DNA of 64,000 nt, taken from assembly GCA_032986305.1 (NCBI GenBank), contig GCA_032986305.1_3672.1, one strand, 5' to 3'. Of this stretch, positions 6,067 to 52,168 are shown in pieces; the first letter of the stretch is position 1; the number at the start of each line of letters is the position of its first letter. Made by a program: the position numbers and the translations under genes. The notes below the pieces were generated by a model that saw only the letters and a list, made by a program, of their open reading frames with translations, ran no database searches and was not told the origin of the DNA. Source of the DNA: a phage.

Positions 6067-6531
6067 GTGGAAGACGGACGTTTAATGAAGTCTGAACGCA
6101 GGCTTATTGTGCAACTGATCCCAGAAACAGCTTGGTATAATAACCTCCGAAACGCTGTGAAGAAGAGTGAGTGGGATAAGATCCGTAAGAAGTGCTACAG
6201 AGAAGCCAACTACACTTGTGAGGTGTGCGGAGGCAAAGGCAGCAAACACCCTGTGGAGTGTCATGAACTTTACACTTTCGAAGAGGGAGTGATCCGGCTT
6301 GTCGGACTGATAGCGTTGTGCCCGGATTGTCACACATCGGTGCATCCTGGGTTAGCAAATATCCGTGGGAAGTATGCTCAGGCAGTTAGTCAGTTAGCTA
6401 AGGTGAATAAGATCACCAAGGGTATGGCGGAGGCCTATTACCGAGACTGCTTTGCAGAGTGGCGTGAGCTTAGTAAAGTTCCAGAATGGAAGACTGACTT
6501 TTCGTGGATAGAGGGTTACCTTGATGGCTAA
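6067..6531 (+). CDS. HNH-like nuclease domain protein (putative)
   Basis: CEVCGG...H...CPDCH metal-finger pattern; GTG start at 6067 or ATG at 6085. Confidence 0.4.
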   Translation: MEDGRLMKSERRLIVQLIPETAWYNNLRNAVKKSEWDKIRKKCYREANYTCEVCGGKGSKHPVECHELYTFEEGVIRLVGLIALCPDCHTSVHPGLANIRGKYAQAVSQLAKVNKITKGMAEAYYRDCFAEWRELSKVPEWKTDFSWIEGYLDG

Positions 6532-6814
6532 GAAACCTGTAAAAGAGAAATTTGATAAGACAGCTTTTGTATTCGATACACCTTTGGACGATATCATCAG
6601 AGGTATGCAAGACTTGTATCGGAAGGCTGAATCTGAGCAGCTGTCAGAATCAGAGCTTTACTGGTTGGGTTGGTGGGAGCTTAATCTACCTAAAGCTGAA
6701 AGATCTGATCTAAAAACCGTTAAAACGTGTGCCCAAGAAAATGCTGCACTTGGAATTTACCACAAAAGAAAAAGATCAACAAAAAGCTCTCCAAGAAAGA
6801 CTAAAAAGTCTTGA
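6521..6814 (+). CDS. hypothetical protein
   Basis: 97 aa ORF, basic C-terminus. Confidence 0.4.
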   Translation: MMAKKPVKEKFDKTAFVFDTPLDDIIRGMQDLYRKAESEQLSESELYWLGWWELNLPKAERSDLKTVKTCAQENAALGIYHKRKRSTKSSPRKTKKS

Positions 6815-6873: not shown

Positions 6874-7182
6874 ATGCTTAAAATTTTTATTGTTGAAGAT
6901 AAAGATATCGTCCAGTTGTATGCAAATGAGAATCACAAAGGTATGATTCTGAAGAAGGCAAAAAACCTTCATGAAAACACAATTCAACCGGGTGATGTAA
7001 TTAAGATCTGTGGTTATATGATACCAGACTCCTTGATGAAAATAACCCACCACTGGGGGTCTAATCCGTTCCTTTTTGAAAAGTATTGGGATGTTGAGTC
7101 ACTTATTGCAGAGAGTGATGATGCATTTCATTACAGCATCCAACCATCTTGCAGAATAACTAACAGGAGGGGCTTTGAGTAG
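6874..7182 (+). CDS. hypothetical protein
   Basis: 102 aa ORF with RBS AGGAGAA. Confidence 0.45.
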   Translation: MLKIFIVEDKDIVQLYANENHKGMILKKAKNLHENTIQPGDVIKICGYMIPDSLMKITHHWGSNPFLFEKYWDVESLIAESDDAFHYSIQPSCRITNRRGFE

Positions 7183-22536: not shown

Positions 22537-22602
22537 TACTTGACAGAAGCCACAAGGATGTGGCATACTTGGCTAATCTATGAGAACCAAGAGGGATCAA
22601 AG

Positions 22603-23559
22603 ATGCCTAGAGGAAAACAACTTACAACTGAAGAATTTACAAAAAGAGCTAGAGAAGTACATGGCGATAAATATGACTATTCAAAAACCGTATATAAAAC
22701 TGCTAAAAGTAAGGTTGTAATTGTATGCCCTGTTCATGGTGAGTTTACGCAGATCGCTGGACATCATATCCTTGACGGTAGTGGGTGTCCTAAGTGTGGT
22801 AGAGTGCCAGTAGGCAATAAGCTTAGAAACGATTCTAGTGATATTATCAAAAAATTTGTAAAAATCCACGGTGACACCTATGATTATTCTAAGGTTGAAT
22901 ATGTTAACTATAAAACTCCTGTAAAAATTGTATGCCCTGAGCACGGAGTGTTCTTGCAATCCCCATCTAACCATTTGAAAGGCCAAGGGTGCCCTGAGTG
23001 TAGTAAACTCATTAGCGCAGCAAAAAGGAATAAAGGCCCTGAATTCATAGAAAGAGCCAAAGAAATCCATGGCGATAAATATGACTACTCTTTTGTAGAT
23101 TATATGACTTGCGAAGATAAGGTAGAGATAATCTGCAACACTTGTGGAAATCACTTCACCCAGACACCTTCTTGCCACCTGTCTGGTCGTGGATGCCCTA
23201 AATGTGCCAAAAACGGTTTCTTATCTCACAACTATGGGAAGCTTTACCTCATGGTTGATAACTTAGAAGCGCCAACACTTATGAAGATTGGTGTGAGCGT
23301 CAATGTAGAAGCGAGGAAGGGAAGGATATTAAGAGCATCCAAGAAGGCTGGTGCAGGTATTTATGATCTCCACATAGTAAAAACATGGGGCGGATCGACT
23401 GAAAACATGCTGAGTGTAGAAAAATCTGTGCATGAAGCCTTCAATAAGTATAAAATAAACTTCTCTAAAGTATTTAGTGGAAGCACTGAATTCTTTCACT
23501 ACAGACCTGAAGTGTTTAGCATAGTGGAAGCAGTATACAAAGAGATCTGTGGTAAATGA
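22603..23559 (+). CDS. T5orf172/GIY-YIG-like protein with three tandem Zn-binding modules (free-standing homing endonuclease candidate)
   Basis: Three repeats of HGDxYDYS...C..HG.F.Q....HL.G.GCP.C, then KLYLMVDN...KIGVS...R core. Confidence 0.55.
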   Translation: MPRGKQLTTEEFTKRAREVHGDKYDYSKTVYKTAKSKVVIVCPVHGEFTQIAGHHILDGSGCPKCGRVPVGNKLRNDSSDIIKKFVKIHGDTYDYSKVEYVNYKTPVKIVCPEHGVFLQSPSNHLKGQGCPECSKLISAAKRNKGPEFIERAKEIHGDKYDYSFVDYMTCEDKVEIICNTCGNHFTQTPSCHLSGRGCPKCAKNGFLSHNYGKLYLMVDNLEAPTLMKIGVSVNVEARKGRILRASKKAGAGIYDLHIVKTWGGSTENMLSVEKSVHEAFNKYKINFSKVFSGSTEFFHYRPEVFSIVEAVYKEICGK

Positions 23560-38853: not shown

Positions 38854-39066
38854 ATGATCAACACACATGTATCTGAAGAGACATCCAAAGGGGTGACCAT
38901 CTGTCACTTGGCTGAGCCAGTGCAAGAGGAAAACTTCGATTCTGAAGATTCTCCATCTTCGCTACAGGTAGATCCTGAGGCTGATGACCTGACGTGGGAG
39001 GACATCGTAGATATCTGGTTCTCTATTATGCCTGAGCACGAAGAGTTCAGGGGTGGTAGACTATGA
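38854..39066 (+). CDS. hypothetical acidic protein
   Basis: 70 aa; preferred over antisense ORF 38584..38925. Confidence 0.35.
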   Translation: MINTHVSEETSKGVTICHLAEPVQEENFDSEDSPSSLQVDPEADDLTWEDIVDIWFSIMPEHEEFRGGRL

Positions 39067-39187
39067 AGCACCGAGCCCACACAGGTTCCTCATGCTAAAG
39101 CATGGCCTGAAGAGGCAAACGTGCATAATTCCTGTGCATTGGAACGTATGAAACCCTGTTCACACTCTCATTTCCAGAGGAGATTTC

Positions 39188-39403
39188 ATGAAGATAGAAA
39201 TATTTGGTGGAGCTGACAACACTCGTGGCCTGATTTACCTTGAATTCGATGAATCATACCTGCCAGAGGTGTTAAATATAAACTCTGTTGCTGAGGCTTT
39301 GGGAGTAAACCCTAAAGAACTCCACTCTTGTGCTGAGATCGATGGTTGGGAAGAGACCATGAACATTGATTTCAGTGAAGTAGAGGATGAACCGCTGGAC
39401 TGA
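39188..39403 (+). CDS. hypothetical protein (MKIEI small paralog family)
   Basis: MKIEIFGGADNT..., RBS AGAGGAGA. Confidence 0.45.
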   Translation: MKIEIFGGADNTRGLIYLEFDESYLPEVLNINSVAEALGVNPKELHSCAEIDGWEETMNIDFSEVEDEPLD

Positions 39404-40985
39404 CACACAATTAGCTGCCCGGCTAAAGTGCTGGAAGCACCTATAACACATCTTTCAACTAAATTTCCCACCACCACAATCACTTACCTCCCACACATGA
39501 CTGTTTGCTTGTTTAGTGAGCAGTCATGCCTTGACATTCTTGCCTATCCTGATAAAATTAAGTTCTTCTCTTTTCTTTTACCGAGTAATTCGGGTTTTCT
39601 GTTCTCTTCGGTTTGAAGAGGTATGGAGATACACCTGAGTGAACAGGGTGAACAACCGAACCATTGGCTATGGCATTAGCATGGCGAAGCGGACGGGTGA
39701 CGAAAGAGGGGCCGGAGGACACCAGTCACTGCCATATGATATACGGGTGATAACCTGAAGAGTCTGAATAAGTGTTTAAGTACCAGTCAGAGGAAAAGGT
39801 GAATGGTAGCCGAAGGGGGAGGGGGGTTTCTTGTATCTTTAATTTGTATATTATGTATACACTTGTAAACCAATCTCATCTGAATCTGTTTACTACACAA
39901 AGCTGATAGGGACAAATATTACCTATTAAACTTGAATTATTTATAGAAAATACCACAACACAACTTAAGTCTTTGATTTTACACACAAATCCTGCAGATA
40001 TTCACCCTCCATATTTAACATACTTGTAACATATTCCATACTCTACCTACCTGATCAATTTACCCACCAACATCCTCCATATTTTCCCTGTCTGTACCAC
40101 CCCTGCCCCGCCGGGAGTCCCGTCATATCTGGCTTTCCAGCAAATATCACACCCACAAATATCATTGCCTGAAGAGGATTTCATCTCATAATACATGCCT
40201 TGCCTGAAGAGCGCTTCATACACCACGTAAATTTTTTAATTGACCCCCTCCCCGCCGCCGGAGAGGTTGGCTTTTCCCACACAGACCTGAAGAGTCAGCC
40301 AGAAATATCTGAATGGACCCAATTCTGCCCTGTTATGAGCCGTAGCTACTGGAGTGCTGCCAGGCGGACGAAATGGGAATACTTCTCATTCTTATAACAA
40401 TTCTCAAATATCAAGGCAGTGAGTCAAATTAATAGGCGAGGCCGTTCACACAGTGGCACAACATTTGCAACCTATCTTGTGGGGGTGAATGAGAATACCT
40501 ATCATTGTGAGAATAGTTATCATTACGGGCAATTTAACATAATACCCATTATGCGCACCACTGGCGATACATACAGGGATTGATAACATGAGTTACTGTT
40601 TACGCATATAACAATTATATTTCTTACTATTTGTGTGGGATATAGTTAGCAGCCAATAGATTAGATATTGACCTGTAGACTTCCAACCGTCTAGACGTCT
40701 AAACGCCCACACAGCAAGGGTTATACATACACTTCTGAATGTAAACAGGGCCGCAAAAATGCTACCATACCAGTTTGTAAATTTTTCATGCAGCACTTGA
40801 CAAAGAGGAGAAAAACTTGTCTGACACTTTAGACACAATAGTGACATACTATGACACCTTTGACACTTTTGCATACCTGATTGTTTGCATGTCTAATAGT
40901 TTACATGGATAACTGTTCACATACTTATCATTTACATGATTGACTGTTTACACAAATATGATAAGCCATGACATTCGTTTGCATG

Positions 40986-41045
40986 AAAACAATTAACAAG
41001 ATAACAATTGACAAGCTAACAGCCAACAAGCTGACAATTAACAGG
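40986..41045. repeat. four tandem 15-bp iteron-like direct repeats
   Basis: AACAATTAACAAG / ATAACAATTGACAAG / CTAACAGCCAACAAG / CTGACAATTAACAGG. Confidence 0.6.
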
Positions 41046-41056
41046 TTAATAATATA

Positions 41057-41229
41057 TGACATAATATAAAAGCAGGGCAACTATTAGCAGATCTATAGTT
41101 GCCTTGCTTGTTATGTCATGATTAACTAAATACAAGGCAACTATGATCTGATTAATAGTTTGCAGACAAACTATCACGGGGGTGATTGTTACTGCTTTTA
41201 TATTATGTCGCGACTCCGTCGCGACATGT
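41057..41229. repeat. nested inverted repeats (cruciform-capable locus)
   Basis: 19-bp arms TGACATAATATAAAAGCAG and CTGCTTTTATATTATGTCA; inner hairpin GGCAACTAT...ATAGTTGCC; 10-bp palindrome ATGTCGCGAC..GTCGCGACAT. Confidence 0.6.
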
Positions 41230-41854
41230 CATTCGTTTGCATAGTTGCCTTATTGTTACGGATAAAATAATTGTATTGTTAATTATTTCTTATCTTTCTC
41301 TTAGTCATCTAATGATTCCAGTCAGTATAGTAATGTACAGTAAACATTAGACGACTAAATATTTCTCTGATTATAGTAACCTATCGTGACAATTTCGGAC
41401 TGTTTACGAAAAATGTTGACACCTGGGCAGGTTTATGTTATGCAGTTTGTACGAATAATTATTTTATACAGGTATTGACTATTCCGTTATTCTGTGGTTG
41501 GAATAAATACTTTGCAGGCTATAGAATGATGTTCGTACGTGAATTCTGAGATCTGTCGGCTATAGTTACACCCGATTTTTCACGTAGGACACGCTTTTTG
41601 GTTTGTGTAAGTGTATGACTTATAAGGGTTTTTAATTGTTGACAGTATGCTGAAAATGTGCATCAGGTTAAATTTTGTGCAATAGCTGCATTACGTGCGT
41701 TTTTGGAAGGAAAAACGTGTAAAAATGACCCTGCTACCACAAGATGAAAGATTATGCAATAGTTATTTTATATGTATATTTGTACAGTGTGCGGGATTAA
41801 TGGCTCGTCAATTATTCCACTTGCCAGGTAGGGCCGTTTATGGTAGGAAAAGAG

Positions 41855-41883
41855 CAAACAAAAAGAAAGGGGCCTAAGCCCCT
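41855..41883 (-). terminator. intrinsic terminator for leftward gene block
   Basis: AGGGGC-cuaa-GCCCCU hairpin; on minus strand followed by UUCUUUUUGUUUG. Confidence 0.6.
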
Positions 41884-41895
41884 TGATAATGTTTA

Positions 41896-42243
41896 TTATT
41901 TGTTTCTCATCCAGCTTTCCCAAGCTGCCTGATAATCTGCCTCACTGCGGCGGATCTCTTCTTGCTCTTCAAGCCGGATCTCTTCTTCCAGGTACCCCAG
42001 GATATCAGCCTTTTTGGTCTGGCGTAACATCCAATCATCTTTTTTACGAGTAAAGATCTTGTACGCTTTCTCGCAAACCTCCTTTTTACTACCTTTTTGG
42101 ACTTCAATAACTTTGTAGGCCATGTACTGAACTAGTTTGAGCTGATCAAGGCGTTTCATGATGTTTTCCTCTTTATGGGGTTCTGGTTTGGTGGGCCTTT
42201 TGGCCCGTGTCATTATCTTATTACTTACGGCGGCAAAATTCAA
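41896..42243 (-). CDS. hypothetical protein
   Basis: 115 aa, basic/charged. Confidence 0.45.
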   Translation of the reverse strand: MNFAAVSNKIMTRAKRPTKPEPHKEENIMKRLDQLKLVQYMAYKVIEVQKGSKKEVCEKAYKIFTRKKDDWMLRQTKKADILGYLEEEIRLEEQEEIRRSEADYQAAWESWMRNK

Positions 42244-42493
42244 GTGTTTTTAATTGATAATCTTCTTCAGCCTGAAGTACAACCGCTTCAATCATTTCGT
42301 TGGCATTGTTGAAGCCATACCCTTGAGCGAACTCATCCGCGCCACCTTTGTGATCATGTTCTGCGTTCATCGCTTCCACAAAATGGAATTCAAGATTATT
42401 GAGGTAAGGGCTTGATGTTCCGTCCTCTTTTTCGATGAGATCCCAGATAGCATTAAAACGTGATTCAACTTTTTGATTAATCCAGCTTGACAT
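42221..42493 (-). CDS. hypothetical protein
   Basis: 90 aa; own promoter and RBS AGAGGAAA. Confidence 0.45.
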   Translation of the reverse strand: MSSWINQKVESRFNAIWDLIEKEDGTSSPYLNNLEFHFVEAMNAEHDHKGGADEFAQGYGFNNANEMIEAVVLQAEEDYQLKTLEFCRRK

Positions 42494-42547
42494 AATGTTT
42501 TCCTCTCTTCTGGTTGTTGTGTGGGCACTTTTGCCCCTTCAAGATAA

Positions 42548-42576
42548 ATGTTACCTAACCACCTGGCAGATGTCAA
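42548..42576 (-). promoter_or_regulatory. sigma70-like promoter (minus strand)
   Basis: Minus-strand TTGACA - 17 nt - TAACAT, followed by GC hairpin then RBS. Confidence 0.45.
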
Positions 42577-42696
42577 CTGTTTTTATAGTTTTTATATAAC
42601 GGGCACCCCCGGTGATTGTCTCCCCCCCGTCGCCAGGTGCCACCCGTGAGATAAGTATAACAAAAAACAGGACCATTGCAAGCCCTGTTTATTATC

Positions 42697-42831
42697 TTAA
42701 AACCAGTTGCCAACCGTTTCCAATAGATCACTGACTATCAGGACAATACTGATCAGCACATACCTAACCATAAAGGGAAAGATCGCCAACATTGCCGCCA
42801 CGATCCCTATGGTGATAATTATCTTTCTCAT
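42697..42831 (-). CDS. small membrane peptide (44 aa)
   Basis: MRKIIITIGIVAAMLAIFPFMV...; co-oriented, below ORF-track cut-off. Confidence 0.3.
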   Translation of the reverse strand: MRKIIITIGIVAAMLAIFPFMVRYVLISIVLIVSDLLETVGNWF

Positions 42832-42921
42832 GTTTTTGTATTCTCTTTCTGTTGCGTTCAAGGCGGTCACCGCCGCCTGCTTATGCTTTGTTAGTTAATG
42901 GGGCGTACGGTATAGATTAAA

Positions 42922-43146
42922 CTATGCTGTACGCTCAACTATAACAACGGCTTGAGGGATCTCACCTTCCACCACTATCAAGGCTTTTTTCTGCGTGATA
43001 GATATCTTTACCCGCTTCAGCGTGGCGGTAAAATCTTTCATTTCGTCACGTGGTGTTTTAGTGCAATACCAGATCTCAGGCTTACCTATTTGCAAGCCGC
43101 GTAAAAATTCCGTTTTGCCTGTTTTGTTCGTGATCATTTGTTTCAC
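42922..43146 (-). CDS. hypothetical protein
   Basis: 74 aa ORF. Confidence 0.4.
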   Translation of the reverse strand: MKQMITNKTGKTEFLRGLQIGKPEIWYCTKTPRDEMKDFTATLKRVKISITQKKALIVVEGEIPQAVVIVERTA

Positions 43147-43324
43147 CTTACCCGATACCGTGGGGAGATAGGATCATGTTAGCCATAGTTGCAACCACTC
43201 CAACCGATAATGCCATGCCAACTACTACAACCGTGAAAATTTTTTCTAACATGATTCCACCCTCATTAATGGGCGTTGCCTTATTGCCCCGCCCTATGTC
43301 GTACACTTTTCTTCTGATCCTCTG

Positions 43325-43588
43325 TTAGCATACGATAGCGATCACGCCGCCACAAATAAAAGGTAAATCAAAACGGTCTACCTTGCAAGCTATTTTTAAA
43401 CGAAAGGCAACATAAAAGAAAAGTTGCAAACAATCGATCATTGTGTTAGCTGTTGAAACACTGCCAGCATTAAACACCACCCCGCCCACGGCGTTAAACG
43501 TTGCGTTACTCACGAAAGCGAAAAGGCAAGCGATCACGGTGGCGATCATGATGTTGCGTTTTGTCAATCTGTAAATGATGTTTTTCAT
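43325..43588 (-). CDS. small membrane protein
   Basis: 87 aa with hydrophobic segments. Confidence 0.4.
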   Translation of the reverse strand: MKNIIYRLTKRNIMIATVIACLFAFVSNATFNAVGGVVFNAGSVSTANTMIDCLQLFFYVAFRLKIACKVDRFDLPFICGGVIAIVC

Positions 43589-43658
43589 TCTGTCATGTTG
43601 GCGGCATCGCTGCCGCCTTATGTATTATGCTTTGTAAGATGGCTGTTGTCAAACTATT

Positions 43659-43838
43659 TTAACGATAATCATCGTACGCTTTATTAACCTGGCGGATATA
43701 ACATTCAAAAGCCAGATCAATGGATTTATATTCACGGGTATATTCACCATAGGAAACTACATACATTTCTATAGCTTCCTCATATGCGAGGAGAATAGAA
43801 TCCAAGCCTACGATCTCAGTCTTTGCAATAATAGCCAT
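43659..43838 (-). CDS. hypothetical protein (59 aa)
   Basis: MAIIAKTEIVGLD...; N-terminus resembles that of 44203..44487 product. Confidence 0.35.
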   Translation of the reverse strand: MAIIAKTEIVGLDSILLAYEEAIEMYVVSYGEYTREYKSIDLAFECYIRQVNKAYDDYR

Positions 43839-43913
43839 GATTTTTTATCCTCTTTGTGGTTGGTGGGGCTTGTTGCCCCCTTGATTTATATATTACAGTC
43901 TTATATGGTCATG

Positions 43914-44147
43914 TCAACTATTTTCAAAAAATTTTTCTGCTGTGATATTCTTCCCGGTAGGGTTCGCTACTTTCAAAATTTTATCATGCACTGGACGCCC
44001 AAAAGAATAAGCGCCGTACACAGTAAACCAATAATCGCCGTCAGGTTGTACTATTACTGCCGCATATGGTACGCCTTTTTCGTTTTTGCTGACAGAATAG
44101 ATCACGTTGCCATTAATAGCCTCGGCGCGTTTAATTTGTTCCATCAT
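43914..44147 (-). CDS. hypothetical protein
   Basis: 77 aa ORF. Confidence 0.4.
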   Translation of the reverse strand: MMEQIKRAEAINGNVIYSVSKNEKGVPYAAVIVQPDGDYWFTVYGAYSFGRPVHDKILKVANPTGKNITAEKFFENS

Positions 44148-44202
44148 GATGATTTGCCTCTCTTTATTTTCATAATTGGGGGCCTTTTCGGCCCCGCCAG
44201 GT

Positions 44203-44487
44203 TTATTTATTGATAGCGTGCAGCGGGAAAGGTACGCCAGGTTGATAGATAACTTTTACAACCTCATCAGGGCAAAAGAAGTTGCAGAACTCACCGCAAT
44301 AGGCCTCATCCTCTTTCAACTCTTCATCAACATACTCAAAAAAGTAGTCGATGCTTGGATAATCTTGCCCTGGGTTATAGTCAACCATTGTCAGGACTAG
44401 TTCAAGATCGTTGCGTAGGATATGCATACCCGCTTTTAAGTATTTTGCTTCCATTTCTACTACATCGCCAACGGTAACAATAGCCAT
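44203..44487 (-). CDS. hypothetical protein
   Basis: 94 aa acidic, MAIVTVGDVVEM... Confidence 0.4.
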   Translation of the reverse strand: MAIVTVGDVVEMEAKYLKAGMHILRNDLELVLTMVDYNPGQDYPSIDYFFEYVDEELKEDEAYCGEFCNFFCPDEVVKVIYQPGVPFPLHAINK

Positions 44488-44712
44488 GATTTTAACTCCT
44501 ATCTATCCGGTTAATGATTGGGGGCCGCCCCCCTGACACGTCCTATTATCCATATTGTAGGGCTTGATGCAAGTACTTCTTTAAAAATTTTTTAAGCGCC
44601 TTGGGGGCCGCTGTAGCGCCAAAATAATAAAGGCCATGCAACCGCATAGCCTTTATGTGATTATATCGCTGCAGGCCCTGCCATGGGCCTTATTTTGCAT
44701 CATTTGCTGGAA

Positions 44713-45012
44713 TTATTCAGAGAAAACATCGTTCACAATAGCGATCACAATGCCGCCCACCTTGTCACGGTCAACAATGCACAAATCACCATAGATCATG
44801 TGGTAGTCTGGATGATCTTTCACGGAATAGTCAATGAGTGTTTTCTTATCGTCCAGCTTCGTAACTTCCATTCTCATAACGATATGAGAATCATCAAAGG
44901 CATTATTGCGAAAAGTCATAGCCTGACCGCCAGGGCACCCGGTGATCTCCACTTCCACACCGTCTACGATCTGACCATCAAAGAAATAAAGATTATTGGC
45001 GGGTATAAACAT
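44713..45012 (-). CDS. hypothetical protein
   Basis: Start set to downstream ATG because upstream codons AAAGGAG read as the RBS. Confidence 0.4.
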   Translation of the reverse strand: MFIPANNLYFFDGQIVDGVEVEITGCPGGQAMTFRNNAFDDSHIVMRMEVTKLDDKKTLIDYSVKDHPDYHMIYGDLCIVDRDKVGGIVIAIVNDVFSE

Positions 45013-45060
45013 GATCATTACTCCTTTTTGCACTGATTATTTTAACAGGGTTTAAATTTA

Positions 45061-45101
45061 CTTTATTGATGGCCTTGGAGTCAAGGCCATCTAAAAATAA
45101 A
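45061..45101 (-). promoter_or_regulatory. 45-bp repeated promoter/operator element, copy 1
   Basis: Minus strand: AT-rich, GATGGCCTTGACTCCAAGGCCATC palindrome containing TTGACT, then TAAACT; near-identical copies at 48780 and 49371. Confidence 0.5.
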
Positions 45102-45103
45102 TT

Positions 45104-45304
45104 TTACAGGCCTACAATCTCTTTGATTCGTTTTACTGCTGCCTCAGCGCCTTGAGGGTAGAAATTATGATAACCAATCACGCGGGTAATACTGATCGCC
45201 GCTTGGTGGTCCTCGTAGTCGCCTTTGAATATTTCTTGACCATCAACCAGCACAGCAATTTTTTCTTCTTTTTTGAAGTTAATAACGCGGATATTGTTGC
45301 TCAT
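45104..45304 (-). CDS. hypothetical protein
   Basis: 66 aa ORF. Confidence 0.4.
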   Translation of the reverse strand: MSNNIRVINFKKEEKIAVLVDGQEIFKGDYEDHQAAISITRVIGYHNFYPQGAEAAVKRIKEIVGL

Positions 45305-45361
45305 TTTGTTTCTCCTTTGGAACTTTGTCTGTGTGGTGGGGAGTGTCTCCCCGTTGATTGT

Positions 45362-45390
45362 TATTATCCATATTCAGGACCGGATTGCAA
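45362..45390 (-). promoter_or_regulatory. sigma70-like promoter (minus strand)
   Basis: TTGCAA - 17 nt - ATAATA, then hairpin GGGGAGACACTCCCC and RBS. Confidence 0.4.
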
Positions 45391-45589
45391 CACCCCGGAA
45401 GAAAAATTTTTTTGAAAAAAGTTAGGCCCCCAGGGATCGGGGGCCGTTATCAGGTGCGTACAGCGATAAAATACATCCCTACGCCTAACAATATTTCAAG
45501 GGCGATAATCTCCAGCCATACCATAACACGGCGCGCCTTATCGGTGCGGGGCTTATCCTTGGGTGTCATCGTCTCCCCCTTTCCTCCTG

Positions 45590-45811
45590 TTAGTAGTGAC
45601 GTGGTTTACAATGGTCCCCAGGAGTACTATCGCCACGCACATTACGAGAAAAATTATTTCTTCCGTTGTTCGGTCCATTGTTATAAAACCTCTCAAGATC
45701 AGGTCTAAAAGTAAATCTTTCGTTATTGAATCCGTCACGCCAGGCGGCTGGCTTCAAATCTTCACTAAATGGATTAATTAACGTGGCATTATTTAAACGG
45801 TTGGCCCACAT
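45590..45811 (-). CDS. hypothetical Asn-rich protein
   Basis: ATG after RBS GAGGA; 73 aa. Confidence 0.3.
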   Translation of the reverse strand: MWANRLNNATLINPFSEDLKPAAWRDGFNNERFTFRPDLERFYNNGPNNGRNNFSRNVRGDSTPGDHCKPRHY

Positions 45812-46160
45812 ATTTTCTATTCCTCTCAAATAGGCGATCCGCCTCAGTTAAACATATCTCATGGGCGTGATCTCTGGTTTTAGCTTCATCGAAAACCTGT
45901 TGTGCAAGGCTGCAACGTAGGGAGACTGGAAGATCACTATAATAGGCGTTGACAAACGTTTGAGCGTCGTACAGGTCTGAAAATACTTTACCCTTTCTAT
46001 TATTTCCCTTGTCAACAATTGCAAGGATAACCAATACAATAGTTGCAACCACCCCCAGGAAAATAGATATAATAAACCATAAAAAGGCGGATCTCCCCAT
46101 CTTGCCAGCGATCCAGGCGTTAAACAAGGCAACCAATATAGCCAAAATAATAAATTCCAT
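45789..46160 (-). CDS. membrane protein (two TM helices)
   Basis: MEFIILAILVALFNAWIAG...FLWFIISIFLGVVATIVLVILAIV. Confidence 0.45.
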   Translation of the reverse strand: MEFIILAILVALFNAWIAGKMGRSAFLWFIISIFLGVVATIVLVILAIVDKGNNRKGKVFSDLYDAQTFVNAYYSDLPVSLRCSLAQQVFDEAKTRDHAHEICLTEADRLFERNRKYVGQPFK

Positions 46161-46224
46161 TCTATGTACCTCTTTTACAGTTCTGATTAACAATAAGGCG
46201 GCAAATATGCCGCCTGTTACCTGA

Positions 46225-46605
46225 TTAAAAATTATCGCCGTAAATCTTTCCGCTTTCTACCCATACCACCACGCGAGGCATACTATCCCACACGTCTTGT
46301 TTTAGATTGAGCGCGTGCAATTCTTCGGTGGTGCTCATACCGGGCACGGGCTGATTGTATACTGCAAAACGACCGCCTGCATAATCATAGGCCAGGGTTA
46401 AATCACACTGGATCATCTTTTTGATCATGGCATTAAGCATGGCGTTAGCCGCATATTGATCACGTTTTAAAGGCAACTCTTTGATTAGTTTGCGATAGTT
46501 TTCGATATGGTCGCACACTGTTTCACGAGGAAGATCTTTCATATCCTCGCGAAAGGTAACCAGGTTAAACATAACGGTGTCAATGGCCTTGGTAGTGTTT
46601 TTCAT
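46225..46605 (-). CDS. hypothetical protein
   Basis: Start at ATG after RBS AGAGGA. Confidence 0.4.
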   Translation of the reverse strand: MKNTTKAIDTVMFNLVTFREDMKDLPRETVCDHIENYRKLIKELPLKRDQYAANAMLNAMIKKMIQCDLTLAYDYAGGRFAVYNQPVPGMSTTEELHALNLKQDVWDSMPRVVVWVESGKIYGDNF

Positions 46606-46694
46606 AATGTTATCCTCTCTGTTTTGTGTTGGGCAAGTCATCTCGCCCCTTGAGTTTTAATATAGCAGGTTTTTAGATTATTGCAACACTTTAT

Positions 46695-47318
46695 TTATGA
46701 AAAACTCATCTCCCCATATTCATCCACATCAAACCGCCAATCATTGGCTTCAATAAGGCCGATCAGGTTTTCGGTAGTAAACTGTTCAAGATAGGCCCCC
46801 TCCAGGTCTACGTAAACCTTGCGGGATAGCTCCCGTACCGTCTCGGTGATCAGCTCTTCCAGCTCTTCAACTTTATCCTCTTGCTTGGTGGTCAGGTCTA
46901 GCCAATTAGTATCGATGCACCCTCCTATTGTGTTTTCGTGGTGATAATGGCTAAACGGGATACGTTCAACACTAGCTGATAACTCGCCATCGTGCATTGT
47001 GCCGAACAAGTGACGAATTGATCGGAACTTGGTCAGGGCCTTGACTTTACGCAAGAATTTTTCTAAATCCACGTTTTCAGCACTGATTGACGCGCCATCG
47101 CCTTGACACCAAAAGCCGGACCAACGTACTTCGGTATCTTCAAGGCCGTACTCTGGAAAGACATATTCTTTATAGTGTTCAATTACGCTTTCTGCAAAAA
47201 AATTATCCCCGCTGTGTTCTTCTCTTTCGCGTACCATTTCAATGGCTTTTTCTTTTTGTTCGTCGGTCAGCACATCGAAAGATAAATTGTAACCTGTGGT
47301 AATGTTAACGGTGGTCAT
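46695..47318 (-). CDS. hypothetical acidic protein
   Basis: 207 aa, strongly acidic; consensus promoter upstream. Confidence 0.5.
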   Translation of the reverse strand: MTTVNITTGYNLSFDVLTDEQKEKAIEMVREREEHSGDNFFAESVIEHYKEYVFPEYGLEDTEVRWSGFWCQGDGASISAENVDLEKFLRKVKALTKFRSIRHLFGTMHDGELSASVERIPFSHYHHENTIGGCIDTNWLDLTTKQEDKVEELEELITETVRELSRKVYVDLEGAYLEQFTTENLIGLIEANDWRFDVDEYGEMSFS

Positions 47319-47346
47319 GATATTTTCTCCTGTTTTCTTTGTTAGT

Positions 47347-47365
47347 GGCGGGAAGTTTTCCCGCC
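47347..47365 (-). promoter_or_regulatory. 5' UTR stem-loop
   Basis: GGCGGGAA-gtt-TTCCCGCC between promoter and RBS of 46695..47318. Confidence 0.45.
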
Positions 47366-47375
47366 TGTGTGTTTA

Positions 47376-47403
47376 ATTATACTTATTGAGATTTACTTGT
47401 CAA
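47376..47403 (-). promoter_or_regulatory. sigma70 consensus promoter (minus strand)
   Basis: TTGACA - 16 nt - TATAAT; -35 abuts stop of upstream gene. Confidence 0.6.
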
Positions 47404-47653
47404 CACTATTTTTTAAATTATTGTGGCGCAAAATGTTTAAAATCTCTTCAACGTCATCAACACGGCGGCAATTTTTAAACGCTACCAATTGCCCCATGAT
47501 TTTAATCACTGGGCGGCCTTGCCAGTGCCCTTGGAGAAAGCGCGCCTTGACTTTATCGGTGGAACTATCACGCCACCAAATAGCCTTGTTGTTGCAGTAG
47601 TAAAAATTATTCAGGATAACATCAACTTTATCAAAATTTTTTAATTTACGCAT
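47393..47653 (-). CDS. hypothetical protein
   Basis: 86 aa ORF. Confidence 0.4.
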   Translation of the reverse strand: MRKLKNFDKVDVILNNFYYCNNKAIWWRDSSTDKVKARFLQGHWQGRPVIKIMGQLVAFKNCRRVDDVEEILNILRHNNLKNSVDK

Positions 47654-47871
47654 GGCGTTTACTCCTTCCTCTCTTTGATGTGGTTAGTATAGCTAACCTG
47701 TTGACGATGTCAATGATATTTTTAACGCCATAAAACGGCCCTGGGCGATGTTTTCAGGTTAAAGGGGGCGATTGCATAGGTGGGGGCCTTTTTGGCGCTT
47801 ACAGGGCCAACCAGGGGCGCTATTCGTATGATAGAAATAAAAAGCCCCGCACAATGGCGGGGCGTTGGTTG

Positions 47872-48069
47872 TTATTTGTCTTTATGGCGGTATCGTTCTG
47901 CCTGTCGTTCACGTTCCAAAAGTAGGCCGGGCAATTTACGATCATAATGATTACGCCAGATCTTCCCAAACCTTTTTGGCTTATTCAGTTTATTGTTACG
48001 CTGGCGGCGTTCTGGCAGCTCTTCGGAATCATGAGGGCGCTTTACAATTTTCTCGAAATTAATTTTCAT
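47872..48069 (-). CDS. hypothetical basic protein
   Basis: 65 aa, Arg/Lys-rich. Confidence 0.35.
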   Translation of the reverse strand: MKINFEKIVKRPHDSEELPERRQRNNKLNKPKRFGKIWRNHYDRKLPGLLLERERQAERYRHKDK

Positions 48070-48413
48070 ATATTCCCCCCCTTGCTAACTTCAATATTGG
48101 CCTGAATAGCTCGGATACGGCGCTTTATAACTTCCTGATCTGTGTGGTCGTATCCCCAAAAGTCTACAATTTTTGCGCCCCCCGCCTCCAGGCGGTATAG
48201 TGTTTCCTGCATTTTGTAAGCCGGGATCGGGCGCGGTGTTACTTGGTCACCTTCTTTATTTTTATACTTTATAATATAATCTTCGTTATCGTTGAATGCC
48301 CAAAATGGATATTCTGCAAGGGCGGTACTTCCTCTTTCCTTTTTATCCTGGATCTTATTTACAATTAAAGCCGTAGCAATAGCGCCAATAATAAAACTAG
48401 CCCCGCTAATCAT
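48066..48413 (-). CDS. hypothetical protein with N-terminal TM helix
   Basis: MISGASFIIGAIATALIV... Confidence 0.4.
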   Translation of the reverse strand: MISGASFIIGAIATALIVNKIQDKKERGSTALAEYPFWAFNDNEDYIIKYKNKEGDQVTPRPIPAYKMQETLYRLEAGGAKIVDFWGYDHTDQEVIKRRIRAIQANIEVSKGGNI

Positions 48414-48489
48414 GTGTACTTTCTCCTTTCATGGTGTTAATAAATTATCTTTATAGATGGCCCTGCAACCAGGACCACCGAAAAAATAA

Positions 48490-48735
48490 CTATTTCACAA
48501 TGCCTACAAAACAGATCCCGCCTTCACCTATGTAAGCAATATCGGTAACTTTATAATTTGTCAAGATCTGTTTATTTAGTTCATTAATAAAATCGGTCAT
48601 TGCGTTGGTGTAGTTGTCTTCCATATCTAAGGCATAATCCCAGGCGTAAACCTTTTTACGTCCGAAGCCTTTTACCATGATACGGGCGCTTTTGGTGTTG
48701 GTGGGCGCATAATATTTTGTGATTAGTGCTGCCAT
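48490..48735 (-). CDS. hypothetical protein
   Basis: 81 aa; RBS GAGGAG; preceded by 45-bp element copy 2. Confidence 0.4.
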   Translation of the reverse strand: MAALITKYYAPTNTKSARIMVKGFGRKKVYAWDYALDMEDNYTNAMTDFINELNKQILTNYKVTDIAYIGEGGICFVGIVK

Positions 48736-48779
48736 GGTTTTAACTCCTCATTAGTTCAGTGTTAACAGTGTAAAGTTTA

Positions 48780-48820
48780 CTTTATTGATGGCCCTGGAGT
48801 CAAGGCCATCTAAAAATAAA
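48780..48820 (-). promoter_or_regulatory. 45-bp repeated promoter/operator element, copy 2
   Basis: Near-identical to 45061..45101. Confidence 0.5.
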
Positions 48821-48822
48821 TT

Positions 48823-49134
48823 TTACTCGTTTTCTTCCAGCTCTGTCTGCAATTCCTGGTATTCTTCATCGTCCTCAATATCCAGGCTGTCGATGTAGTC
48901 GCTAAATCCGCAGCGGTAAGCGATAGGATCTAACTCCTTGAGGATACGCGACGGAAGAAAAGAAATGTTTCCGATCATAATTTCGCCGTAGATCTCGTCT
49001 AGCCATTCGTCATAGTTTTCGTCGTACTTGTCCTCGTCGATTTCAAAGTTATCGATCTTGTTCTCAAGGTCTGCGATCTGTTTTTTCAGCGCGGCGATCT
49101 GCATAGCTTTTTCTGCGGCGGTCATAGTAGTCAT
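48823..49134 (-). CDS. hypothetical acidic protein
   Basis: 103 aa, coiled-coil-like N-terminus. Confidence 0.4.
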   Translation of the reverse strand: MTTMTAAEKAMQIAALKKQIADLENKIDNFEIDEDKYDENYDEWLDEIYGEIMIGNISFLPSRILKELDPIAYRCGFSDYIDSLDIEDDEEYQELQTELEENE

Positions 49135-49370
49135 GGTGTTTTCTCCTTTTGTGTGTTCTGGGAAGTTTTCCCGTTTACGTGTTTAAGTATACCGATTTGG
49201 GTTAGCTTGTCAATTAAAAATTTAAGAAAAATTTTGCAAAACTGTTGGCGCTACTCATTAACATTTGCGCCAGGATGTAACCGACAACGCAAACGATAAT
49301 AGTTACCTTTGTGTATTGGCGTGTAGTGCTCATCTTAAAGCCCCCTTTTCGCTTAGTTGAGACTAGTTTA

Positions 49371-49411
49371 CTTTATTGATGGCCCTGGAGTCAAGGCCAT
49401 CTAAAAATAAA
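49371..49411 (-). promoter_or_regulatory. 45-bp repeated promoter/operator element, copy 3
   Basis: Near-identical to 45061..45101; upstream of a 39-aa membrane ORF. Confidence 0.5.
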
Positions 49412-49412
49412 C

Positions 49413-49817
49413 TTAATAAGTTTTCAGTACTTTACCGTCCAACCTGTCAAGCTGGATCTCAATAGCTGCAGAAAACCTATTGTACACCACGTCGCCCATA
49501 GAATCCAACCAATCTATGACGTTATATACCTGCTCTTTATTCTTACAGGTCCGGATCCGTTTCATGATGTAAGCCGGATCAATATTGGTACTCTCGTTGG
49601 TGTTCCCCTGTACCTGGTTTGCCGTATTAGTTACATCTTTAATGGCCTTTACCACCACCTGGAATGGCTTTAAGGTGCCTTTTGCGTTCATCTCACGCGC
49701 TTTTGCGGCGCGGTTGTTATATGTTACACAACGGCGGCAAATATTGATCAAATGCATGTCAATAATTTTTTCATCGTTTGCCAACTCGTTCATGATGCGG
49801 CGTACGTTCTTATTCAT
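49413..49817 (-). CDS. hypothetical protein
   Basis: 134 aa ORF. Confidence 0.4.
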   Translation of the reverse strand: MNKNVRRIMNELANDEKIIDMHLINICRRCVTYNNRAAKAREMNAKGTLKPFQVVVKAIKDVTNTANQVQGNTNESTNIDPAYIMKRIRTCKNKEQVYNVIDWLDSMGDVVYNRFSAAIEIQLDRLDGKVLKTY

Positions 49818-49899
49818 GGTCTTTTTCCTTTATGTTGGCGGGAAACATTCCCGCCTTTTGTGCCCAGTTTACTTGAATTTTGCAGCGTGTCAACAATTT

Positions 49900-50298
49900 T
49901 TATTCATGGGCGCATGTTACAATGTGCTTTTTATAGCCCAGGCGGTCAGCAAGTGCCGACAAAAACTCTTCTTCGTAGATCCAGCCGTCGGCAGTGATCC
50001 CCATAGTATTTAATGCGCTCTCAAGTGCTGCGTTGGCCTTATCATAACCGTGACCGCTCGCCTTGCCGCCAGTATAGCCGTACTTATTGTTCTTGTTGTC
50101 GTGTATCCAAAAAACGCAGTAGTAAGTGTTCCCGCTGGCGGCGGCATAGTACCGGATCTCCGCTACTTCGTGCAAATTATTATCATCGTCCAGGCCAACC
50201 AGATTATAAGCCTTGTAAAATCCACGATCACGGCGGCAATTTTTAACATCAGAAAAAGAGAAGTCGGCATTGTCAAAATTAAAGGTTGTGGTTTTCAT
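49900..50298 (-). CDS. hypothetical protein
   Basis: 132 aa ORF. Confidence 0.4.
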   Translation of the reverse strand: MKTTTFNFDNADFSFSDVKNCRRDRGFYKAYNLVGLDDDNNLHEVAEIRYYAAASGNTYYCVFWIHDNKNNKYGYTGGKASGHGYDKANAALESALNTMGITADGWIYEEEFLSALADRLGYKKHIVTCAHE

Positions 50299-50362
50299 GA
50301 TTTTATCCTCTCAGTGTCTTTTTTGATTTCAGTATATTTTGTGTCAGGCCATATGTCAATAC

Positions 50363-50560
50363 TTATTTTTTATTAAACCAGTGGTTGATCTGGCCTTTTG
50401 TCAGGGCGCAACGATTAAGTTGGTGCCGTGTATAGCTCTGACCGCGACGGAATTTATAAAGGCCTTGCCCGTTGTTGATGGTTACATCCACCCGGCAAAC
50501 CATTTGATCGGTGACCACCTGGCGAGTGTTGCGACGTACTTTGATTCCGTAGGCGTTCAT
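50363..50560 (-). CDS. hypothetical protein
   Basis: 65 aa ORF. Confidence 0.35.
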   Translation of the reverse strand: MNAYGIKVRRNTRQVVTDQMVCRVDVTINNGQGLYKFRRGQSYTRHQLNRCALTKGQINHWFNKK

Positions 50561-50645
50561 GATTTTTTATCCTCTCTGTTAATTGGTGTGGTGTTGTTCA
50601 CCTTGCGAGGATAAGAATAACAATAACTGTACGAGCTGTCAACCA

Positions 50646-50822
50646 TCAGTTAAAATTATTTTTTGGGTAGAATTCTCCAGCCGCCGCCCCTGCCAGGTTA
50701 ACCATCATTTTTTCGTACTCTTCTTTATGTTCCAACGCTCCCGCCATAGCCTTTTCAACCAGGGCGATAGCCTCAGCGTCATTAATAGCTACATTTTCCA
50801 GGGGGATCATGTTACCTTTCAT
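50646..50822 (-). CDS. hypothetical protein (58 aa)
   Basis: RBS GGAGGT then ATG; MKGNMIPLENVAIND... Confidence 0.35.
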   Translation of the reverse strand: MKGNMIPLENVAINDAEAIALVEKAMAGALEHKEEYEKMMVNLAGAAAGEFYPKNNFN

Positions 50823-50869
50823 TTTTGTACCTCCTCTTCAATTGTTACCTATCCTATAGCATAGGCCCA

Positions 50870-51838
50870 CCAGGTTTGCAAGCCTTCATTCTCTCCTACC
50901 TGGTCAGTTAGGTCCTACCAGGCTGGCCCCGCCAGGTTGCAGCGGTTAGCGCATCAGGTTAGAAAATTTTTTTGAAAAGTGTTGACAGCGGCCCAGCCAG
51001 GTGGCACAATATACCTATCGAAAGGACGGCAGGCACCGGTGACGGGGGAGACAACCACCGGGGATGGGCGCTGCATAAAATGAGAACGGTTATCATTATC
51101 CTTTAAAAATTTATGCAAAAATCCTTGCTTTCTTTGTCCTGTGTGATACTATAATAACAAGCCGGGGCAACAGGGGCCGGGAGACAATCACCGGGCCTGC
51201 CCGTTATTCTGCAAACGAGAATGATTATCATTCAAAATTCTAAATGAGAACTCCTCGCATTTAATAAATTTAATTAGCATGCTAATTACCCTCCGTAACA
51301 ATTTCCTATAAAACAGTATCCCATAAAATATTCCCATACAGAAATTTTAAAAATCCATTTCTGAAAACGAAAAATCGATTTCGTCCCCAAAAATTTCAGG
51401 TCGAGATCCGGAACGATTTCTAGAAAATCCGATTTAGAAAACGAAAAACAGATCGAGTACTGAGAAATTTATCGAGAAAAATTTTCAGAAAATTCAATCT
51501 TTGAAACGAAAAACAGATCGAGTACCTGGAAAGCTGCACTGCAACTTCAAGATAGTGGTTAGATTATTACCATAGAAGGTCAAGGGTAAGTGGAGGAAGT
51601 TCTAGTAGAAGGATGTGAGCATGTGTGGGAAATCTGTAATGGTGGCCTGAAATATGGTGCAAACGATAGGATGAGTGATTCAGCTTGTCGCGCCTACTCT
51701 GAAAAAATCCATTTTAGTTTTCGATCCATTTTCTGATTTTCTAAGGATTTTAAAATATCCGGCCCGGTGAAATATCAAAAGGAGGAAATCCATTTTAGAA
51801 ATCCCCCTTATACTTGATATGCCAGGAATTTTCAAGTA
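50870..51838. other. non-coding repeat-rich region
   Basis: No ORF of 60 aa or more; two paralogous promoter-hairpin units at about 50980-51240; direct repeats AAATCCATTT (x5) and GAAAACGAAAAACAGATCGAGTAC (x2). Confidence 0.5.
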
Positions 51839-52168
51839 TCAGCTGTCTTTGTTTTTAGGTTTGTACATGCGCAGAGGTATGGTCTTTGTAACATTCCATT
51901 TCCTCAACCCTTCCCAGCTCCAGTTGTGGGCGTGATACCCGGTTATGCATGCACTGCTGGCGTGATCATAAGCATAAGAGAACGCTATGTGCACCAGGTG
52001 GGGCCAGTCCTTCCACGGCTGTGGACCGTAAGCCTTTCTCCAACACCGACACAAACTAATTGTCTCAAGAATAGGGAGAATAACAATTCCATATACCACC
52101 ACCAGAATGGTCAGTGCAATGATTGTCAGGAACACATACCCTGCAGTTGAAATGATGATCTCTGTCAT
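51839..52168 (-). CDS. membrane protein
   Basis: N-terminal long hydrophobic helix. Confidence 0.4.
   Translation of the reverse strand: MTEIIISTAGYVFLTIIALTILVVVYGIVILPILETISLCRCWRKAYGPQPWKDWPHLVHIAFSYAYDHASSACITGYHAHNWSWEGLRKWNVTKTIPLRMYKPKNKDS

Follow-up and report, generated by a model that had tools for sequence, protein, structure and literature searches.

The window analysed here is a 64,000-nt stretch of phage DNA (contig GCA_032986305.1_3672.1 of GenBank assembly GCA_032986305.1), in which a short hairpin-forming element is present in four copies. The window was found to derive from a Vequintavirus (an rV5/FV3-like phage): its segment 44000-50500 matches more than 120 Vequintavirus genomes at 90–96% identity, and the repeated element, together with its flanks, is 100% identical to the corresponding sequences of phages FV3 and YP-6. 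Genes are encoded on the + strand in the first ~38.5 kb of the window and on the minus strand over the remainder, beginning at ~38.6 kb. All four copies of the element are in sense orientation within an ORFan-rich minus-strand block of small genes; in the grouping used in the rV5 paper, this leftward small-gene block comprises genes 238-164. The genes flanking the copies are all ORFans, with no Pfam domain and assigned to PHROG families of unknown function. Several genes of the rV5 block are annotated as similar to hypothetical proteins of RB49, the phage in which the composite elements named PeSLs (promoter-early stem-loops) were discovered (Arbiol et al. 2010, PMC2839356).

Three of the copies share a 24-nt palindrome, GATGGCCYTGGAGTCAAGGCCATC, as read on the + strand. 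No further match to this palindrome was detected in the 64 kb when up to three mismatches were allowed, and none was expected (100 dinucleotide-preserving shuffles). The full motif, TTTACTTTATT..., starts at positions 45057, 48776 and 49367. An earlier note, made from the letters of this DNA, had reported the three near-identical copies, with starts (45061, 48780 and 49371) that are off by 4 nt. On the minus strand, each copy runs from a stop codon through an AT-rich tract to GATGGCCTTGACTCCA(A/G)GGCCATC and then to AATAAAGTAAA(T/C)T. The arrangement described in the note, namely an AT-rich tract, a palindrome containing TTGACT and a TAAACT about 18 bp further on, holds for copies 2 and 3, but copy 1 reads TAAATT. 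The note had also placed the copies just upstream of minus-strand gene starts, which was confirmed: a Shine-Dalgarno sequence and an ATG are located 44–55 nt past the hairpin (Table 1). It missed, however, a diverged fourth copy (62% identity), detected by repeat finding at 48443-48503, and the pairing of the flanks described below, which makes the unit a hairpin of ~64 nt rather than a 24-bp palindrome. With a covariance model, the count was exactly four both in the window and in the complete rV5 genome; in the latter, the copies lie within 4.4 kb and all in gene-sense orientation. In every member examined, and whatever the gene, the upstream stop codon is found 10–12 nt before the upper stem.

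Table 1. Copies of the element and associated features in the 64,000-nt window (positions in the window; aa, amino acids; ORF, open reading frame)
Feature	Position	Strand	Parts	Putative promoter	Downstream gene	Fold and covariance-model score
Copy 1 (type P)	45048..45111	-	stop TAA 45104-45106; upper hairpin 45068-45091; lower stem 45094-45104 pairs with 45054-45064	-35 TTGACT 45079-45084; -10 TAAATT 45055-45060	start 45012	-25.5 kcal/mol, z -5.3; 77.4 bits
Copy 2 (type P)	48767..48830	-	stop TAA 48823-48825; upper hairpin 48787-48810	-35 TTGACT 48798-48803; -10 TAAACT 48774-48779	81-aa ORFan, start 48735	-25.6 kcal/mol; 76.7 bits
Copy 3 (type P)	49358..49421	-	stop TAA 49413-49415; upper hairpin 49378-49401	-35 TTGACT 49389-49394; -10 TAAACT 49365-49370	39-aa membrane-like ORF 49217-49333, start 49333	-26.9 kcal/mol; 79.6 bits
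Copy 4 (type N, diverged)	48436..48499	-	stop TAG 48490-48492; upper hairpin GGTGGTCCTGgttgCAGGGCCATC 48456-48479, two G.U pairs	no TTGAC -35		sense fold -25.5 kcal/mol; 66.6 bits
Canonical sigma-70 promoter (P192 in rV5)	49186..49213	-	directly after stop codon of 39-aa ORF	TTGACA-N16-TATACT
Cassette between copies 3 and 2	48821..49364	-	39-aa ORF; promoter 49186-49213 with 5' hairpin; 103-aa ORFan 48823-49134
Second composite class (about 10 more sites in KKE7M, L123)	49837-49893, 49157-49213, 47347-47403, 43600-43652, 46631-46686	-

The repeat unit comprises the stop codon, a U-rich strand, a GC-rich stem-loop and the sequence AAUAAAGUAAAYU. The folding of 86-nt windows predicted the two flanks to pair with each other, generating 10–11 bp, followed by a 2x3-nt internal loop, a 10-bp upper stem and a tetraloop. 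The sense-strand folds of the four copies, each an interrupted hairpin of ~21 bp, had energies of -25.5 to -26.9 kcal/mol (z of -3.9 to -5.3); the upper stem alone, which is GC-rich, contributed -16 kcal/mol. The antisense folds were weaker; copy 4, for example, gave -11.4 kcal/mol (z -0.65), versus -25.5 kcal/mol for the sense strand. Copy 4 keeps the same lower stem as the other copies, with compensatory changes.

The conservation of this structure was analysed in 24 instances from the window, phages Alma, MiataMamis, rV5 and KKE7M, and IMG/VR contigs, two of which represent an uncultivated clade in which only small patches are 88–90% identical to Vequintavirus. Standard pairs occupied 96.0% of the 500 pair cells on the sense strand, a value that none of 500 shuffles reached, although the sequences counted are related orthologues and paralogues, so that the cell counts exceed the number of truly independent events, which is perhaps 7–10. 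When, as a control, the partner columns were slid by 1–3 positions, the proportion of standard pairs fell to 34–56%. Five of the 11 lower-stem pairs vary on both sides; one position, for example, is found as U-A, A-U, C-G and G.U. The upper stem is 99.6% paired across the 24 instances, and its changes are one-sided wobbles; in a further diverged member, L178_9596, four upper-stem positions are changed and all ten pairs are kept. Throughout the family, sequence is conserved only in the seven base pairs of the stem base (GAUGGCC/GGCCAUC), the upper GC stem having 9–10 bp and the apical loop 3 to 16 nt. Finally, on the sense strand, G.U cells outnumbered A.C cells by 60 to 11 overall, and by 29 to 0 in the upper stem. 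The G.U bias, the covariation and the weak antisense folds indicate that it is the sense strand that folds, most simply as mRNA. By these sequence comparisons, the core of the element is shown to be a structure on the sense-strand transcript, and the element itself is real, non-random and evolutionarily maintained.

An Rfam search of positions 42000-52000 gave no family at E≤1 overlapping the copies, and no usable earlier description of the element was found in the literature. No copy was present in 5,426 E. coli genomes, nor did the covariance model identify a member in 100 kb of PVP-SE1 (Seunavirus). A loose pattern of the flanks, run against viral contigs, gave chance AT-rich matches only. 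A pattern scan of metagenomes with a stem-pairing filter retrieved at least two Vequintavirus contigs among the matches listed, with no added diversity. In the phage collection, KKE7M was the sole non-Vequintavirus record containing the element. As far as these searches extend, members of the family occur only in Vequintavirus, one uncultivated sister clade and a single phi92-like phage. The uncultivated clade (IMG/VR sample 3300045988; L178 3068-9664 and L170 1910-3035) contains at least five family members in 7 kb, some of them without a promoter and one with an entire UP/-35 module as its loop.

In copies 1–3, TTGACT is followed 18 nt later by TAAATT (copy 1) or TAAACT (copies 2 and 3), a 9/12 match to a sigma-70 promoter. 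Across the genomes compared, the -35 reads TTGACT, TTGACA (the consensus) or TTGACG; in relatives, TTGACA has a spacer to the -10 of 17 or 18 nt. The loop bases AC, which complete TTGAC, are invariant in copies 1–3 of the genomes compared, with the exception of one variant of copy 3 (TTGATA, in L143), while the last two loop bases vary. In three differently built hairpins of the diverged clade (L170_2563, L178_5944 and L178_6577), TTGACA lies exactly 17 nt before TAAACT or TAACCT. The loop of one of these three hairpins, AAAAAAATAGTTGACA, is 16 nt long and reproduces the A-rich/-35 module found in the group's canonical promoters. In KKE7M, TAAATT is followed by 10 nt, a GC hairpin and a Shine-Dalgarno sequence, the same spacing as that of about 10 canonical promoters of this phage. 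The canonical promoter at 49866-49893 likewise has TAAACT as its -10. No promoter or terminator is annotated at the copies in the rV5 RefSeq record or in the Alma record. The promoter reading is probably right, and draws on the comparison across relatives rather than on the strength of the match in the window.

A second class of composite was observed on the minus strand (Table 1). It consists of a near-consensus TTGACA-N16/17-TAnnnT, 10 nt, a conserved 5' hairpin (GGCGGGAAnnnTTCCCGCC) and a Shine-Dalgarno sequence. These sites often follow immediately after an upstream stop codon, are common to rV5-like and phi92-like phages, and lie at mosaic boundaries.

Natural variants revealed exchanges at the copies. 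For the IMG/VR contig L142, the alignment with the window breaks off at position 49365 and continues from 48820, with an overlap of 47 nt. The single element of this contig is a hybrid, with the upstream flank of copy 3 and the downstream flank of copy 2; the 39-aa ORF, the 103-aa ORFan and the promoter at 49186-49213 are all missing. Both the hybrid arrangement and the cassette loss recur in the cultured phage 'ime'. KKE7M, a phi92-like phage (Justusliebigvirus) of a different subfamily, contains a 470-bp piece that corresponds to positions 49214 to 48776 of the window (91% identity). This piece extends from the -35 of the canonical promoter at 49186-49213, which forms its upstream boundary, to the -10 of copy 2, leaving out the 39-aa ORF, and the KKE7M sequences on both sides are unrelated to the window. 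Other alignment breakpoints relative to the window also fall at promoters or hairpins (43613, 47691-47708, 42690 and 41868-41895). Loop variants are common to paralogues of one genome (ACTT in copies 1 and 2 of rV5; ACAC in copies 1 and 2 of MiataMamis), which suggests gene conversion between copies. As shown by these natural variants, the near-identical direct copies act as substrates for homologous recombination that deletes or inserts the ORFan cassette located between them.

The 81-aa ORFan at 48490-48735 (minus strand) is bracketed by copies 2 and 4. Homologues with 36–46% identity were detected in unrelated phages, namely Seuratvirus/CAjan-like phages, Pseudomonas KIL-like myoviruses and Klebsiella podoviruses, a distribution that, judging from these matches, is moron-like.

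Two rival readings place the function of the element in DNA. The earlier note proposed a promoter with a built-in operator. In this model, a palindromic site in double-stranded DNA overlaps the -35 of a sigma-70 promoter, and a dimeric regulator encoded by the phage would bind it and so co-regulate the three downstream genes. Within Vequintavirus, the 24-bp palindrome is indeed perfect or nearly so, constant in length, overlaps TTGACT and is common to the three genes; in addition, rV5 encodes at least one annotated transcriptional regulator, gp153. Across the family, however, its end-to-end span is 21, 24, 25, 28, 29 or 36 nt, which is unlike an operator because a dimeric binder of double-stranded DNA needs a fixed spacing. 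Moreover, its asymmetries are G.U pairs on the sense strand only, as reflected in the 29 to 0 count above, and the antisense fold is lost in copy 4. The AT-rich flanks pair and covary, which an operator would not need, the hairpin is retained in members devoid of the promoter, and the element keeps its phase with the upstream stop codon. The promoter half of the proposal is supported by the comparison with relatives; the operator half is probably wrong, and control by a dimeric regulator bound to the palindrome seems very improbable, although within Vequintavirus a protein specific to the 24-bp form is conceivable. Another role at the DNA level would be that of a mobile or recombination site, in which a hairpin of single-stranded DNA serves a dedicated recombinase or HUH enzyme, as in REP/RAYT or attC systems. 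This could account for the strand-specific conservation of the structure, the variable loop length, the conserved stem base, and the position of the element at the 3' end of gene cassettes that are gained and lost there. We find it hardly credible, however: neither a recombinase nor an HUH enzyme was detected, Pfam gave no transposase match for the rV5 'transposase' ORFs, E. coli genomes contain no copies and each phage genome only four, and the hybrid junction lies inside 48 nt of identity, as explained by ordinary homologous recombination. Three specific candidates were rejected: an integron attC site (order of the conserved end motifs reversed, no integrase), a RAYT/HUH transposase (the rV5 'transposase' ORFs lack a transposase domain) and a host REP-like origin (no copy in E. 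coli genomes). The + strand ORFs of the window at 6521-6814 and 6874-7182, which correspond to rV5 gp088 and gp089 ('transposase-like' and 'transposase'), gave no Pfam transposase match, so that this annotation of gp088/gp089 looks unsupported.

If the element acts as RNA, the hairpin might be mainly a terminator or attenuator insulating each ORFan, a role proposed for PeSL stem-loops. Its position directly after stop codons and its stable GC-rich stem would fit this role, and one PeSL stem-loop was reported to reduce downstream lacZ expression as much as rrnB T1 did (PMC2839356). The 3' flank, however, reads AAUAAAGUAAA, with no U-tract, and the order on both DNA strands is T-rich tract, hairpin, A-rich tract, opposite to that of an intrinsic terminator; a canonical intrinsic terminator was thus rejected in either direction. 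A terminator scan called none of the four copies, and it did call neighbouring hairpins with U-tracts (47844-47863, 45425-45445, 44627-44656 and 46196-46215); two independent genome annotations likewise skip the copies yet call nearby U-tract hairpins. In addition, no promoter follows copy 4, and termination there would silence the downstream gene at 48066-48413. A principal role in termination or attenuation is therefore quite improbable. RNase III accommodates ~22 bp (PMC6212723), and the element has a comparable geometry: it is intercistronic, with 10–11 bp, a 2x3 internal loop and 9–10 bp. An RNase III site, or a hairpin protecting 3' ends of the kind found in T7 early mRNA, appears more likely than attenuation, since there is no U-tract and the gene beyond the promoter-less copy 4 needs read-through. 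Such processing or stability functions, through an RNase III site or a barrier to 3'-exonucleases, might be all that the element does, its likeness to TTGAC...TAAAYT being functionless. The conserved core of the family is the hairpin with its flanks, and not the -35; type N members have no TTGAC, the -10-like bases belong to the covarying lower stem (column pair 10/69), and the promoter match is weak. This RNA-only view is nevertheless unlikely, because in at least three loops that were built independently, TTGACA and the -10-like hexamer are separated by exactly 17 nt (with a probability by chance of ~2e-4 each), one loop copies the canonical UP/-35 module, the loop bases that complete TTGAC differ in one variant only, in contrast to the other, variable loop bases, and KKE7M shows the canonical spacing from the -10 to the 5' hairpin.

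The reading we favour is that the element is a PeSL-like module composed of a promoter and an RNA hairpin, to which, from the sequences compared, we assign a probability of about 0.6. The PeSL kind itself is known from T4-like phages, and the best fit is a member of it new to the Vequintavirus group. Besides the relatedness of the sequences in the pair counts, several points weigh against this interpretation. Sites matching 9/12 positions with an 18-nt spacer occur at chance level (39 found in 12 kb, versus 27 ± 4.6 expected), and the promoter in copies 1–3 could in principle be incidental. The -35 is missing in copy 4, L178_3088, L178_7014 and L178_9596, all of which keep the hairpin, so that the hairpin constitutes the conserved core, with the promoter added in a subset of members. 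The promoter list of the rV5 authors, and their supplementary table of promoters and terminators, do not include these sites; the thresholds applied there (10/12 matches and spacers of 15–17 nt) would exclude sites with 9/12 matches and 18-nt spacers. A survey of the searchable literature yielded no transcript data for any rV5-like phage. A PeSL stem-loop of RB49 was reported to be a strong terminator (PMC2839356), and attenuation in the absence of a U-tract would, given that stem-loop, have to be reckoned with. The proposed role as an RNase III site or mRNA stabiliser is deduced from geometry only.

In the proposed model, the structure begins at the upstream stop codon, and its U-rich strand pairs with the A-rich strand (10–11 bp), enclosing the 2x3 internal loop and the GC stem. 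Three of the four copies would have a host sigma-70 promoter built into this hairpin, as the comparison suggests. Its -35 (TTGACW) would lie in the apical loop and stem, the 3' arm would serve as the spacer, the -10 (TAAAYT) would be part of the 3' strand of the lower stem, and the AT-rich 5' strand would occupy the position of an UP element. The embedded promoter could thus give the next ORFan a transcript of its own, in addition to read-through. On read-through transcripts, the hairpin would probably punctuate the polycistronic mRNA. Recombination between copies deletes or inserts an ORFan cassette and would homogenise the copies within a genome, and the element marks the junction of the cassette shared with a phage of a different subfamily. 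A bolder version of the model, more doubtful but worth stating, is that the base of the hairpin (UUUU/AAAG, the 2x3 loop and GAUGGCC/GGCCAUC), phased 10–12 nt past the stop codon, is the site for a dedicated RNA-binding or processing factor of the phage or the host. The element would then combine an intercistronic punctuation signal, a loop promoter and the portable crossover site of a network of cassette exchange linking Vequintavirinae and Stephanstirmvirinae, and would go beyond a generic stabilising hairpin.

If the favoured reading is correct, rV5-like phages would organise part of their ORFan-rich early region with a device of T4-like phages, in which one short sequence serves as host promoter, mRNA hairpin and recombination seam. 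This would explain how small genes of unknown function are gained, lost and transferred between unrelated coliphage lineages together with the signals needed for their expression. Reference annotations would gain three promoters that they now lack and four RNA structures, and the element would provide a compact natural case of a promoter located inside the loop of an RNA hairpin. Phages of the rV5 type are widely isolated for phage therapy and biocontrol.

Other observations concern the database records and the remainder of the window. Across the region, 17 GenBank records named 'Campylobacter phage' (MG0656xx; host C. jejuni) are 92–96% identical to E. coli Vequintavirus, and their C. jejuni host label looks doubtful. 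Positions 50860-51840 form a ~1 kb stretch with no convincing ORF, containing many short GGATTTT/CGTTTT motifs and three degenerate direct repeats of ~62 nt (51332-51393, 51406-51467 and 51471-51532); it might be an origin or a non-coding RNA. Between the convergent + and minus gene blocks there is a ~3 kb ORF-poor region (~38900-41900), which corresponds to the 'non-coding' box of the rV5 map and contains short tandem repeats at 40490-40524, 40868-40907 and 40988-41043. Finally, a 50-nt repeat is present in three copies, spaced ~204 nt apart, at 22633-23090 inside the ORF 22540-23559, and presumably encodes a repeated protein domain.

The element can be compared with several known systems. 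REP elements are thought to stabilise mRNA 3' ends and, like the element, REP/BIME sequences are imperfect palindromes located just past stop codons within operons. The element differs from them in having no match in E. coli genomes, no associated RAYT-like enzyme and only four copies. The RNase III sites of T7 early mRNA (R0.3-R1.3) are intercistronic hairpins of roughly two helical turns with a central internal loop, cleavage of which leaves a protective 3' hairpin. The element is likewise placed between cistrons, has about two helical turns with a central internal loop, and is not a terminator; the likeness is of geometry only, since there is no sequence similarity and the element also houses a probable promoter. 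The canonical promoters of the same group of phages (TTGACA-N16/17-TAnnnT, 10 nt and a 5' hairpin, GGCGGGAA...TTCCCGCC) share with the element the region and strand, the position after stop codons, the combination of promoter and stem-loop, and the location at mosaic boundaries. In these promoters, however, the stem-loop follows the -10 and lies at the transcript's 5' end, with a match of 10–12/12, whereas in the element studied the stem-loop is upstream and overlaps the -35, with a match of 9/12.

The closest resemblance is to PeSLs, which are present in the T4-like phages RB49/phi1, T4/PST and KVP40/nt-1 (PMC2839356, PMC4122927). A PeSL is a composite that includes the upstream stop codon, an AT-rich tract and sigma-70 boxes, with a stem-loop between, overlapping or flanking the boxes and in which G-T pairs are tolerated; PeSLs cluster among ORFans, and recombination between them gives rise to deletions, replacements and mini-circles (PMC2839356). 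The element described here differs in that its host is a Vequintavirus rather than a T4-like phage. It also forms one conserved sequence family (GAUGGCC...GGCCAUC) with a covarying U/A lower stem and ~21 bp in all, has no U-tract, includes members lacking the promoter, and is limited to four copies per genome. In the remaining features it resembles a PeSL. It is intergenic, and extends from an upstream stop codon in an AT-rich tract to a Shine-Dalgarno sequence and start codon; it contains putative sigma-70-type boxes (TTGACT-N18-TAAAYT, 9/12, in copies 1–3 and TTGACA-N17/18 in relatives, copy 4 having no -35); its stable stem-loop overlaps the -35 and includes G-T pairs; and it is repeated in a plastic ORFan region, with four copies in 4.4 kb between which recombination deletes or exchanges cassettes.

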